Below are positions 40,356-64,000 of a stretch of DNA of 64,000 nucleotides, in pieces (position 1 is the stretch's first letter; every line of letters begins with the position of its first letter). The translations under genes were made by a program, and so were the position numbers. This stretch comes from a virus: IMG/VR virus record IMGVR_UViG_3300038468_000223, positions 32,001-96,000 of that record; one strand, given 5' to 3'. The notes beneath the pieces are model-generated. The model saw only the letters and a list, made by a program, of their open reading frames with translations. It was not told the origin of the DNA and did no database searches.

Positions 40356-41060
40356 ATGTCTTGCGGCTGCGATCAGAAGACCAGGCGGGTGCTCGATCCC
40401 GCGGCGACCGAGGGTCCGGTGCTCGTGGTGGCGGACGGCGAGGAGGACGCGGCCTTCGCGTGCGGGTCGGAGGAGTGTGGCGCCGAGGTCGCGCCCGCCA
40501 TCCGGGCGGTGCGGGTCGAGCGCGCGCGCAAGGCTGGGGACGCGTACGAGGTGACCGAACAAGAGGTCGCGCTGCCGGAGTCCTTCGGCGCAGCCTCGCA
40601 GGACAGTCCCGGCTGCCTGCCGTGGGTCCGGATCACGCACGACACCAAGCGCTACAAGGCCTGCCTCGCCGCCGCGCGGCGCATGGGGCAGATGACCGAC
40701 TCGTCGCGCCTCTACGCGGTCATCAAGGATCACATGATGGCACAGGAGCAGGAATGCTTCCTGGTCATCATGGTGGACACGCAGCTCCACGTGCGCGGCG
40801 TCTCCGAGCTGACGCGTGGGGCGCGCGACCGCGTGATGGCCCCCATCCCGGACGTGCTCCGCCTGCCGCTCGTGGACGGGGCGATGGGCTTCGCCGTCGC
40901 ACACAACCACCCGTCGGGCAAGAGCCAACCCAGCAACGCCGACACGGAGCTGACCAGGGCGCTGAAGGCGGCGGCCGACACCGTGGAGCTGCTCCTCCTC
41001 GATCACCTCGTGGTCGGGATCGACAGCTACTACTCCTACCGCGACAACGGTCTGCTCTGA
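40356..41060 (+). CDS. JAB/MPN (RadC-like) metalloprotein with Cys/Glu-rich N-terminus
   Basis: QECF, HNHPSG..PSNAD..LT, LLDHLVVG; GAGGAGG RBS. Confidence 0.9.
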   Translation: MSCGCDQKTRRVLDPAATEGPVLVVADGEEDAAFACGSEECGAEVAPAIRAVRVERARKAGDAYEVTEQEVALPESFGAASQDSPGCLPWVRITHDTKRYKACLAAARRMGQMTDSSRLYAVIKDHMMAQEQECFLVIMVDTQLHVRGVSELTRGARDRVMAPIPDVLRLPLVDGAMGFAVAHNHPSGKSQPSNADTELTRALKAAADTVELLLLDHLVVGIDSYYSYRDNGLL

Positions 41061-41080
41061 TCGATGGAAGGAACAAGACG

Positions 41081-41806
41081 ATGAACGAGAGCGCTCAGCA
41101 GCCCAAGAAGAAGACCATGCGGGTCGTGCAGGTCCACTGCATGGACAAGTCGGTGTGGGGTCTCGGCCAGCCGATCCCGACCCGGCCGGAGACCGTCATC
41201 CGCAACATCGTCGTGGTCAACGACTGCGTCGAGGTCTTCGCGACGGACAACGCCAACGCGATGCAGGTGCCCCACGTCACGCTGTTCCCGCCGCTCGCCA
41301 TGTGCGTCACCTCCGTGTGCCCGCTCGAGACCTGGCAGGAGATGATCGCCGACTACGAGCAGATGCAGTTCGCGGTGCAGCTCAACGAGGTGGCCGACCT
41401 GCACGGCAGCCAGTGGCGCGTCGGCGGGGCCGTTCCCGGATCGGAGGTGCCGCTTCGGATCGACCGCATCGTGCGCGAGCTGGGCGACGCCAGCGTCCAC
41501 ATCTTCGTCTCGCCGCTCCCCGGCAGCGACATGGCGCAGAAGGGGTTCGCCCTGTACTTCCGGCTCATGCCACTGACCGTGACCGCCGCCTCGACGATCC
41601 ACAACCTCGCCAAGTCGCGCGAGATCATCACGATGCTCGAGGAGCTGCAGGCCGCCATCGAGGAGCCCGAGGAGGAGGACGACGACGAGGAAGAGGAGGA
41701 GGACGAGGAAGAGGAGGAGGTCGTGCAGGCCGCCGCCGCCCCTCCCGAGACCCCGCCGCTGCCGCCGCCCCCCAACGGAGCCCCCGAGGCCCCCTCCACC
41801 AACTGA
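41081..41806 (+). CDS. Hypothetical protein with internal duplication and acidic/Pro tail
   Basis: W..G..(I/V)P...I..IV occurs twice; poly-E/D. Confidence 0.7.
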   Translation: MNESAQQPKKKTMRVVQVHCMDKSVWGLGQPIPTRPETVIRNIVVVNDCVEVFATDNANAMQVPHVTLFPPLAMCVTSVCPLETWQEMIADYEQMQFAVQLNEVADLHGSQWRVGGAVPGSEVPLRIDRIVRELGDASVHIFVSPLPGSDMAQKGFALYFRLMPLTVTAASTIHNLAKSREIITMLEELQAAIEEPEEEDDDEEEEEDEEEEEVVQAAAAPPETPPLPPPPNGAPEAPSTN

Positions 41807-41815
41807 GAGGATCCC

Positions 41816-42142
41816 ATGCCCTCACCCACCACGGCCACGCTCGTCTACACGGTGACGCGCGCGAAGCCGATCAAGATCGCCGACCTCGTCACCGCCGTGG
41901 GCAACGTGGTCCTGACCACCGACGAACTCACGCAGTGCGGCGTGACGCTCAACAGCGACATCACCGCGATGGTCGATGGCGATCACGCCGCGCGCACGAT
42001 CGTGTTCGATCTGTCCGCCGACTTCATCGTGCAGTTCCCCGACAACACCGACCAGGCGGCGCCGTTCCGGGGTCTGTTCACCCAGACCCTCTCCGCCGCG
42101 CTCAAGACCGTCGTGGCGGCTGCGGCGCCCGTTCTCGCGTAG
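41816..42142 (+). CDS. Hypothetical virion-module protein
   Basis: GAGGA RBS. Confidence 0.7.
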   Translation: MPSPTTATLVYTVTRAKPIKIADLVTAVGNVVLTTDELTQCGVTLNSDITAMVDGDHAARTIVFDLSADFIVQFPDNTDQAAPFRGLFTQTLSAALKTVVAAAAPVLA

Positions 42143-42150
42143 GAGGCAGC

Positions 42151-62021: not shown

Positions 62022-62669
62022 ATGCCGCTCTCCATCGATCGTTCGTACCCACGCTGGCGCCGGATGGAGCGCGACCTGACGCGCTACTACGAGGAGTGCG
62101 CGTCGAGCGCGCCGGCGAGGTTCCGCGGCAAGCGGCGCAAGAGCTACTGCGCCGGCGTGGCGTGGAAGCGCCTCAAGATGGCGGGGCGCTACCGCGACTA
62201 CCCGGGCTTCGGGCGCGCGGCGGCCGAAGGCCGCGAGAACCCCCTCCCCTCCAAGACCAAGGACGCGCTCATCGCGACCGCGGTCATCGCCGGGGGCTTC
62301 GGCCTGATCCTCTACATGATCTCGAAGCTGCCGAAGAAGGCGCCGGCTCCGCCGCAGCCCTCTCCTCTTCCCGCGACGACGCCCACGGGCATCCCGGTCG
62401 TCCTCACCGAGCCGACCTACTACGTGCACCAGCGCCTCATCGACAGCCTCGACACGCAGGCGATGCGGTGCACCCTCCCCATGTTCGTATTCGCCGGGCC
62501 GAAGTCCGCGGCCGACGCCCTCGCGCGCCAGCTCACGACGCGCGCGCCGATCGGGGGGAGCGGCATGGTCGCCGTCTCGGTCGCCTCGCCGGCCGTCGAG
62601 CCGACGTGCAACTGGCGCCGGGTCTGCCTCGCCGACGGCTCGTGCGTCGGCGCGGTCGGTCTCGGCTGA
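62022..62669 (+). CDS. ChaB-like module, RENP, TM, C-terminal domain ending GAVGLG
   Basis: CAGVAWKR..GRYRDYP shared with 49480. Confidence 0.7.
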   Translation: MPLSIDRSYPRWRRMERDLTRYYEECASSAPARFRGKRRKSYCAGVAWKRLKMAGRYRDYPGFGRAAAEGRENPLPSKTKDALIATAVIAGGFGLILYMISKLPKKAPAPPQPSPLPATTPTGIPVVLTEPTYYVHQRLIDSLDTQAMRCTLPMFVFAGPKSAADALARQLTTRAPIGGSGMVAVSVASPAVEPTCNWRRVCLADGSCVGAVGLG

Positions 62670-62680
62670 AGGAGGTCCTC

Positions 62681-63058
62681 GTGGTCGGCAAGGTCGTCGC
62701 GGCAGCAGCGATCGGGGGCGTCACCGGGTGGCTGCTCGAGAACCTGCTGTTCGGGCGGCGCAACTCGAACCTGTTCGGCGGCCGGGAGGTGCCCTTCCTG
62801 CCGGTCTACGCCGTGGGGGCGGCCGCGGTCGTCGCCGCCGCCCCGCACCTGCGCGAGCTGCCCGCGGTCGCGCGCGCGGGCGTCTACGCGGGCGGCCTCT
62901 CGCTCCTCGAACTCGCGGCCTGCGGCGCGGACCGCGAGCTTGGCCCCGCGTCCTGGGACTACGGCAACGGGGGCTGCGTAGACGTCCCCCACGCCATCAC
63001 CTGGGGCGCGCTCGGCCTCGCCCTCGACGCCCTCACGACCAGTGAGCCTCGACGTTAG
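62681..63058 (+). CDS. Membrane protein, DUF975/putative ABC-permease-like
   Basis: GWLLE, PFLPVY..G, LE, WDY. Confidence 0.6.
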   Translation: MVGKVVAAAAIGGVTGWLLENLLFGRRNSNLFGGREVPFLPVYAVGAAAVVAAAPHLRELPAVARAGVYAGGLSLLELAACGADRELGPASWDYGNGGCVDVPHAITWGALGLALDALTTSEPRR

Positions 63059-63066
63059 GAGAATCC

Positions 63067-63946
63067 ATGGATCCGATTCAGCAGACGAATCAGACGGCCG
63101 AAGAGGCGTTGTTCCTGGCACAGATGATGATGGCGCGCCTGTCGGGACGATCGGGCTCGAAGCTCTTCGTCTACCGCCCCGGCGGAGCGACGCTGCGAGA
63201 CCAGAACGTCTTCGCCGACTGGAACGACCTCGAAGAGGTCCGGTCGCAGACCGTCGGTCCGAAGATCGTCCAGATCGACGACACCATCGTGTCGCCGGCA
63301 GTGATTCCTGTCGGCGTCTACGACATGGAGTCGACGACCCTCGTCGGCGACCTCGAGCGCGTGCACGCCGGCGTCAACGTGCTCTGCGACATCTCCGACG
63401 GCGCTCGTCTCGAGAACCTCGGCGACGTCGCGAACGGGCTCACCCTCACGTCGCACAGCACGACGGTGCCGGTGCACACGATGTCGGCAAACGACTTGCT
63501 CATCGTCGAGCGCGGAGCGGTCGTCCAGAACGCGCCGGGGTCGACGGTGTTCTTCAAGCTGCCGAACGGTGCGCAGGCGATCATCGTCTCGTACCTCGGC
63601 GGTCAGCTCGGCGGTGGGACGGGCGTCCCCTTCCTCAGCATCGACGCGGGCGGCGTCGCCACCGTCCTCCTCCTTCTCGGTGCTCGCCAACAACGTCATC
63701 GTGGGCGGTGGCACGGCCGGCATCATCGTGACGTCGCAGAGCGCGTTCGTTCAGACGCCGTTCCCGATCGTGCAGGGAGGGATCGCCGCACTCACCACGA
63801 CGATCTACAGCTTCGCCAACTACACCGGCTTCCAGGGGCTGAACGCGGCTCCGTGGACGGCGCCGCCCCCGACGAACGTCGAAGACGCGATCAATCGCAT
63901 GGCGGCGCTGCTTCAGGTCTTGAACGGTGGCGCGACCATTCCGTGA
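63067..63946 (+). CDS. Fibre/spike-like beta-rich protein with apparent +1 frameshift near 63670 (missing from ORF track)
   Basis: GGAGA RBS, MDPIQQ...FVYRPGG..NVF.DW; removing one C joins FSVLANN...W..PPPTNVEDAINR. Confidence 0.6.
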
Positions 63947-64000
63947 TAGGATTCGATCATGAAGAAACTCATCGCGATCGTGTTCACCTCCGTCCTCGTG

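Follow-up and report, generated by a model that had tools for sequence, protein, structure and literature searches.

A block of about 35 co-directional genes that begins at position 40356 of the window analysed here (64,000 nucleotides, corresponding to bases 32001-96000 of the 105,511-bp IMG/VR virus record IMGVR_UViG_3300038468_000223) represents, with a probability of about 60 %, the late module for virion morphogenesis in a lineage of bacterial viruses that are large, tailless, probably membrane-containing and as yet undescribed, with genomes of roughly 55 to 130 kb. To our knowledge, all well-known large bacterial viruses are tailed phages with an HK97-type capsid, and tailless membrane-containing prokaryotic viruses reach about 44 kb at most. 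The genome under study consists of a single contig of 67 % GC carrying an identical 127-bp repeat at both ends and is, therefore, closed and circularly assembled; the IMG/VR entry classes it as viral and assigns direct terminal repeats to it. CheckV completeness amounts to 64 % for this closed genome and to 100 % for relatives.

Central to the block are three genes located side by side on the plus strand, the products of which are predicted to be mostly beta and all model as jelly rolls. These are a 444-aa candidate major capsid protein composed of a jelly-roll core and a second beta-rich part (51590..52924) and, encoded directly downstream, a 200-aa single jelly-roll protein (53011..53613; candidate penton or second capsid protein) and a 273-aa single jelly-roll protein with a C-terminus that differs in length among relatives (53617..54438; 266-398 aa in relatives; candidate vertex or spike protein). 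A preliminary description of the window had named the same three genes, at exactly these coordinates, as beta-rich and possibly jelly-roll proteins, and the structure models agree with it: viral jelly-roll capsid proteins figured prominently among the best matches, namely those of PRD1 (P3), poxvirus (D13), Paramecium bursaria chlorella virus 1 (PBCV-1), Sulfolobus polyhedral virus 1 (SPV1) and Haloarcula hispanica icosahedral virus 2 (HHIV-2), next to Singapore grouper iridovirus (SGIV) and p72, and HK97 structures were absent from the match lists of all three candidates. The 444-aa protein, folded together with 56 relatives, yielded a mostly beta model with a predicted local distance difference test score (pLDDT) of 83 and a predicted template modelling score (pTM) of 0.79. 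Its top structural match was PRD1 P3 with 172-182 aligned residues, and single-jelly-roll templates aligned over residues ~62-411; a Foldseek search with the same model returned nothing significant (top row papillomavirus L1, E 4e-3). Judged from the model, the core roll may be closed by the protein's own N- and C-terminal strands, with the second beta domain inserted. Profile comparison by hhalign revealed no relationship of either half of the 444-aa family to the families of the 200- and 273-aa proteins. The latter two were folded together by read-through of a single in-frame TGA (code 4), attaining pLDDT values of mostly 85-95 (200 aa) and a mixed range of about 40-94 (273 aa); the mutual placement of the two halves in this joint model (pTM 0.53) is not meaningful and was not used. 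On the sequence level, a tblastn search of 50,697 phage records with the 444-aa protein gave no match, neither the protein nor its family profile matched PDB sequences, and ten distant members of the family had no Pfam match. Overall, the evidence from folds is suggestive, but not decisive. The 444-aa gene displays the highest GC content at third codon positions (GC3, 0.989) among the genome's genes coding for at least 150 aa.

The lineage characterised by the trio is both real and large. In a protein collection clustered at 90 % identity, the 444-aa protein has 97 relatives residing on contigs of up to 198 kb, and a profile search extended the family to 273 clusters at 50 % identity, none of them with a Pfam family. 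Among 36 IMG/VR loci, nine of which lie on contigs larger than 100 kb, the trio was present in every one. For a comparison of gene content, all proteins of the present genome and five whole relatives (109-128 kb, one with terminal repeats) were clustered. Universal to these six genomes are only a RadC/JAB protein, the core of a protease, a hydrophobic protein and the 444/200/273-aa trio, always in constant order; a GroES-like gene, a proline-rich protein and one family of transmembrane (TM) proteins (C8) each occur in five of the six. The replication genes vary among the six genomes, to the extent that PolA itself is not common to all. Such a combination of conserved structural genes with replication genes that can be exchanged is what virus lineages usually show. 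Full-text literature searches retrieved no description of this lineage, which is not proof that none exists; this agrees with the initial suspicion of an undescribed or poorly described lineage.

Hallmark genes of tailed phages and of DNA packaging were not detected. Six-frame searches of the present genome and four relatives with five Pfam families (Terminase_6N, TerL_ATPase, Phage_portal, Phage_capsid and Pox_A32) gave no match in any of the five genomes, while the control genomes gave matches. Likewise, Pfam and PHROG scans of the (large) proteins included in these scans brought up no family of terminases, portals, HK97 capsids or tail proteins. Thus, the lack of such signatures already reported for the block extends to its flanks, to the whole genome and to four complete relatives, and the finding named at the outset as refuting a tailless virus (an HK97 fold, or terminase, portal or tail genes in the flanks) was not made. 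Specifically, proteins of at least 400 aa had no Pfam or PHROG match to a terminase; Phage_portal was found in none of the five genomes, with other portal families lying outside the six-frame searches, and the large unknown proteins had no PHROG match to a portal; Phage_capsid was likewise found in none of the five, although a very divergent HK97 copy could still hide among the non-conserved genes. The packaging ATPase missing from the window was not found in the rest of the genome either, and the flanks, where an FtsK- or A32-type enzyme had been considered, contain none. Walker A scans of the six genomes revealed no lineage-conserved P-loop protein, detecting only replication/nucleotide enzymes or non-conserved proteins, and none of the Walker A proteins of at least 400 aa is common to the whole lineage. 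With FtsK_SpoIIIE, the sole result was an 11-bit sub-threshold match in a 689-aa protein of relative G001, which was rejected as packaging ATPase since it lacks a Walker A motif (P-loop). Also rejected was the Walker A protein at 6554-7795 (minus strand), which is present in one of five relatives, has no PDB, Pfam or PHROG match and possesses a ~250-aa core common in many unrelated phage contigs.

Since open reading frame (ORF) lists are crowded with false frames at high GC, genes were called with a home-made model of codon usage and GC3, resulting in 154 genes. According to these calls, the ~24 kb of co-directional genes noticed at the outset belong to an unbroken plus-strand run of ~35 genes that extends from the RadC gene (40356/40389-41060) to position 65778, beyond the window end, and contains one doubtful small minus-strand ORF (63318-63584). 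More than a dozen genes with TM segments had been counted in this block, and a hydropathy scan bears this out, assigning TM segments to 14-15 of the 35 block proteins versus 8-16 of the 119 other genes (Fisher p 8e-6 to 5e-4).

The transglutaminase-like cysteine protease (712 aa; 46839..48977, plus strand) is split by an intein and carries a C-terminal extension with two TM helices. Its core was recovered in all six genomes and in 31 of 36 loci, and in an alignment of the six orthologues conservation extends to the columns of Cys, His and Asp. Three of the four intein-less orthologues matched Pfam Transglut_core (PF01841; cut-off 23 bits) with 24.1-31.6 bits, the fourth falling just below (21.4 bits), which substantiates the Cys protease likeness proposed earlier; the copy in the window has no such match because the intein splits the domain. 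This mini-intein (174 aa; 47190..47711, plus strand) is located directly before the catalytic Cys, begins with Cys, ends with Asn and is followed by Cys at +1. An insert with exactly these boundaries is lacking in four of the six orthologues, and relative G004 harbours at the same site a full-length intein of ~290 aa in which LAGLIDADG_3 (22.4 bits) and Hint were detected; thus, terminal residues, precise absence from orthologues and the Hint/endonuclease content of the larger copy all identify the insert as an intein. A transglutaminase-like protease seems an unusual home for such an element. A potential target of the protease is the motif G-[LVIMF]-G, which occurs 32 times in the module proteins (41081-64000) versus 13.2 +/- 3.5 times in shuffled sequences (~2.4-fold), with no excess in the rest of the proteome. 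In the 444-aa family, G-[LVF]-G-x-x-P is invariant within an otherwise disordered N-terminus (51590-51680), so that a G-[LVIMF]-G near the capsid N-terminus is, as far as can be judged from sequence, a candidate maturation-cleavage site. We infer that the motif excess in the module and the invariant N-terminal motif fit precursor processing, comparable to that known from adenovirus and asfarvirus maturation.

The remaining genes of the block, all on the plus strand, are described in order. The block opens with the RadC-like JAB-domain protein (40356..41060; Pfam RadC, 101.5 bits; six of six genomes, 20 of 36 loci), followed by a small conserved protein without Pfam match (41816..42142; cluster C13, four of six genomes) and a Pro/Gln-rich protein without Pfam or PHROG match (42151..44022; cluster C7, five of six genomes), a candidate scaffold or tape-measure protein. 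In the alignment, the latter shows one conserved domain at each terminus and, between them, a long low-complexity linker rich in Pro and Gln. Three membrane proteins with TM segments follow (424, 246 and 243 aa; 44065..46835). The last of them (46104-46835) contains a weak chagasin-like Inhibitor_I42 domain scoring 26.2 bits, slightly below the 27.2-bit cut-off; this places a membrane protein resembling cysteine-protease inhibitors directly upstream of the protease gene. Between the protease and the 444-aa gene are encoded a 146-aa conserved protein (49043..49483; cluster C30, three of six genomes, no Pfam match) and a protein (49867..51525) that combines a Lys/Ala-rich, H1-like arm of net charge +79 with a conserved hydrophobic C-terminal domain. 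The H1 likeness, proposed before, is compositional only (99 K/R and 75 A within the first 285 aa). The hydrophobic domain is found in six of six genomes, always beside the 444-aa gene, whereas the basic arm occurs in only three; the protein is a candidate link between DNA and membrane.

Downstream of the trio lies a LysM protein (54435..55820; LysM 20.7 bits, cut-off 20.9), in which two internal repeats and a TM helix accompany a domain at the C-terminus. Like a 351-aa TM protein (57440-58495), it belongs to the C8 family, and it is a candidate peptidoglycan-binding virion membrane protein. The segment 55833..59634 codes for small single-pass membrane proteins, the 351-aa C8 protein and three ~155-aa beta-type paralogs (56954-57424, 58698-59156 and 59170-59634), whose mutual identities of 32-59 % verify the small beta paralogs reported initially. 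Up to the window end (59637..64000), further small TM proteins, a coiled-coil protein and a CX5R phosphatase-like protein (59897-60370) are encoded, the phosphatase likeness of the latter being weak (Pfam DSPc 22.7 bits, below the 33.5-bit cut-off). Just past the window end, in the continuation of the block (L003:234-959), a papain-family protease (Peptidase_C1, 31.6 bits) is encoded. In relatives, the module starts with the gene for a small Cpn10/GroES-like protein immediately preceding RadC; here, the replication block separates the two (30919..31302, plus strand; Pfam Cpn10 22.6 bits, cut-off 21.1; cluster C6, five of six genomes). By analogy to T4 gp31, which helps the T4 capsid protein fold, this protein may act as capsid-folding co-chaperonin. 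A further protein located apart from the block combines an SLT-type lytic transglycosylase motif (ES ... GLTQ) with a C-terminal TM helix (350-1003); in relatives G003 and G005, its homologues are encoded within the structural module. The LysM protein, the membrane-anchored SLT-like transglycosylase and a possible peptidoglycan-binding protein fit wall penetration or lysis.

Taken together, these genes would allow for the following course of virion formation. The 444-aa protein would act as major capsid protein and the 200- and 273-aa proteins as penton/vertex or second capsid proteins of an icosahedral shell, which would enclose, as in PRD1-like viruses, an internal lipid vesicle furnished with the ~14 TM proteins of the module. 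Folding of the capsid protein could be assisted by the GroES-like protein, and the Pro-rich protein might serve as scaffold or ruler. The hydrophobic protein encoded beside the capsid gene, extended here by the H1-like arm, would tie the condensed DNA to the membrane. The protease would become active only once the intein is spliced out and would then trim precursors at G-[LVIMF]-G, including the site near the capsid N-terminus; the DNA would be enclosed without a dedicated viral packaging ATPase.

Individual traits of this arrangement recur in several known virus groups. As in Tectiviridae (PRD1, PR772) and other prokaryotic double jelly-roll (DJR) viruses, small jelly-roll genes follow the capsid gene (compare penton P31 and spike P5) and many small membrane proteins are encoded in the late operon; the membrane-anchored SLT-like transglycosylase is comparable to PRD1 P7. 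In contrast to these viruses, an FtsK/HerA ATPase, a protein-primed PolB, inverted terminal repeats and any sequence similarity are missing here, and the genome is ~7x larger (105 kb vs 15 kb for PRD1 and 7-18 kb for metagenomic groups; PMC5894146). Sphaerolipovirus-type viruses (HHIV-2, HCIV-1, SH1, P23-77), whose capsids consist of two vertical single jelly-roll proteins, likewise possess several different jelly-roll capsid genes side by side and an internal membrane, the latter predicted here from the genes. Their genomes, however, measure 17-31 kb, they encode an A32-like ATPase and infect archaeal or Thermus hosts, and their capsid proteins fall far short of 444 aa. SPV1 (Portogloboviridae) also has a membrane, condenses its genome with a basic protein and lacks a recognisable packaging ATPase, but is a 20-kb archaeal virus without sequence relationship, and the basic arm of the present lineage is not lineage-wide. 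Nucleocytoviricota (PBCV-1, iridoviruses, African swine fever virus, poxvirus D13) share large genomes and an internal membrane (here again deduced from genes) covered by capsid or scaffold proteins of the jelly-roll type, and include the structural matches of the trio to PBCV-1, SGIV, p72 and D13. Maturation by a cysteine protease that cuts at Gly-rich sites is known from them as well, as are basic proteins in the core. They differ in having eukaryotic hosts, an A32 ATPase, PolB and a transcription machinery of their own, whereas the present genome is bacterial in gene content. The resemblance to large eukaryotic viruses put forward initially is, therefore, weak, the more so as a ChaB-like protein was not detected and the SET-domain protein, though real (53 bits), is encoded at 14761-15039 on the minus strand, i.e. 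in the early/replication region outside the virion block. Prokaryotic DJR viruses are reported to have genomes of 7-18 kb, and both FLiP and the metagenomic 'Odin group' to have no packaging ATPase (PMC5894146); the latter also combines a DJR-type capsid gene with a neighbouring single jelly-roll gene, but falls within that size range, and no sequence link to it was found (Yutin et al. 2018, PMC5894146).

Several points weigh against a virion module of large tailless viruses. An FtsK/HerA-type packaging ATPase, hallmark of both PRD1-type and sphaerolipovirus-type viruses, was not found; the six-frame searches took in only five Pfam hallmark families, and the protein scans covered the large proteins and part of the small ones; gene calls and TM calls are both home-made; and particle shape and membrane are predictions from the genes. 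Two beta-helix (tailspike-like) paralogs upstream of the block and collagen-repeat proteins in relatives are of kinds common in tailed phages. Moreover, the extent of the single-jelly-roll alignments on the 444-aa model suggests one jelly roll with an inserted domain and not a canonical tandem double jelly roll. Of the tailless, membrane-containing virion module proposed in the preliminary description, the jelly-roll models and the absence of hallmarks have stood; the 444-aa protein may have one roll or two, and a membrane and a tailless particle are predicted. The same alignments bear on the type of shell. A tailless jelly-roll virus might instead build a sphaerolipovirus/SPV1-type capsid from two to three single vertical jelly-roll proteins around a nucleoprotein-wrapped genome as in SPV1, in keeping with single-jelly-roll templates covering most of the 444-aa model, with three conserved adjacent jelly-roll genes and with a very basic protein encoded alongside where no packaging ATPase was found. 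This we regard as rather unlikely, given that the 444-aa protein matched PRD1 P3 best, that 444 aa exceed the size of known vertical single-jelly-roll capsid proteins, and that only half of the six genomes encode the basic arm.

Genome size, 23 tRNA genes, the phage-type replication module and the beta-helix paralogs would also fit a highly divergent tailed phage (Caudoviricetes) whose HK97 capsid, terminase, portal and tail genes have diverged too far for detection and whose jelly-roll trio serves as decoration, fibre or receptor-binding proteins. Jelly rolls are indeed common in tail fibres and cement proteins, the collagen-repeat proteins of relatives would suit such a virus, and Atlas neighbours of the proteins at 6554-7795 and 32085-33725 are labelled Uroviricota. 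Yet terminase genes are usually detected more easily than any other phage gene, and searches of five genomes with the five hallmark families remained without a match; the lineage as a whole shares no Walker A protein of at least 400 aa; and relatives whose trio is 45 % identical should have a portal and a terminase in common too, whereas, of the large proteins, only the trio and the module core are universal. A tailed phage is, therefore, considered improbable. Even less credence is given to the block being no virion module at all and representing a cell-envelope or secretion cassette of a large plasmid-like or vesicle-transmitted element. While the many TM proteins, the LysM motif, the SLT-like transglycosylase, the proteases and the failure to find packaging machinery could be accommodated by such a cassette, and non-viral jelly rolls score equal to viral ones, capsid proteins of viruses with a membrane predominate among the best structural rows, and the order of chaperonin, scaffold-like protein, protease and capsid-like trio is typical of virus morphogenesis. 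In addition, the contigs are classed as viral by IMG/VR, which assigns direct terminal repeats to two of them, and the proteins scanned with Pfam/PHROG included none for conjugation or partition.

If the block is the virion module of a widespread environmental lineage of tailless bacterial viruses with genomes of ~100 kb, genome expansion of jelly-roll viruses would not be confined to those with eukaryotic hosts, a new capsid family of 273 clusters would have escaped annotation, and packaging of a large dsDNA genome might do without a recognisable motor. Current pipelines treat these contigs as ordinary phages, although the searches for tailed-phage hallmark genes found none in them. As a tentative extension, possible though short of probable, the viruses could constitute a bacterial lineage of class or higher rank with genomes of 55-130 kb (perhaps up to ~200 kb), in which a jelly-roll capsid surrounds an internal membrane, the DNA is enclosed without involvement of a viral packaging NTPase and condensed on a membrane-anchored protein (H1-like in some), and an intein-gated transglutaminase-like protease matures the shell by cutting at G-x-G, forming a bacterial counterpart of the route from PRD1-like to giant viruses.

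Upstream of the block, a phage-type replication/nucleotide module codes for an SNF2 helicase, a PD-(D/E)XK nuclease, an AAA_25 ATPase, Sak4-like and SSB-like proteins, PrimPol, ThyX, a dNMP kinase, UvrD, an exonuclease and a 1076-aa PolA fusion. The latter (37010-40240) unites DUF4326, an SLOG-type domain, uracil-DNA glycosylase, 3'-5' exonuclease and family A polymerase, and shares only ~25 % identity with known phage polymerases. The beta-helix paralogs (32085-33725 and 34090-35454) are acidic proteins of 31 % mutual identity with Atlas resemblance to right-handed beta-helix/pectate-lyase tailspike-type proteins; their location between the genes for exonuclease and PolA is odd, and relatives show no conservation of them. 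Proteins with collagen-triple-helix repeats, up to 1832 aa long, are encoded in or near the structural module of relatives (L054:12353-17851, minus strand; L056:13542-16511, plus strand; L061:16410-18410, minus strand), are absent from the present genome and may represent surface fibres.

LysM, SLT-like transglycosylase, Dam, RadC, integrase and tRNAs all point to a bacterial host. Titles of metagenome-assembled genomes containing the capsid gene (Acidimicrobiales, Binatia, Polyangiaceae, Chloroflexota) were discarded as host evidence, these being short contigs probably binned by GC. The first 32 kb of the genome contain one integrase and two methylases; the integrase is of the tyrosine type (L001:7528-8520), so that the virus may be temperate. 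Most of the tRNA genes form a 21-tRNA array downstream of the block (L003:2133-6514, genome positions 98133-102514), which includes one called tRNA-SeC(tca), and two odd tRNAs are located at 10461-10614 of the window, one of which was called 'Stop' with anticodon tta.

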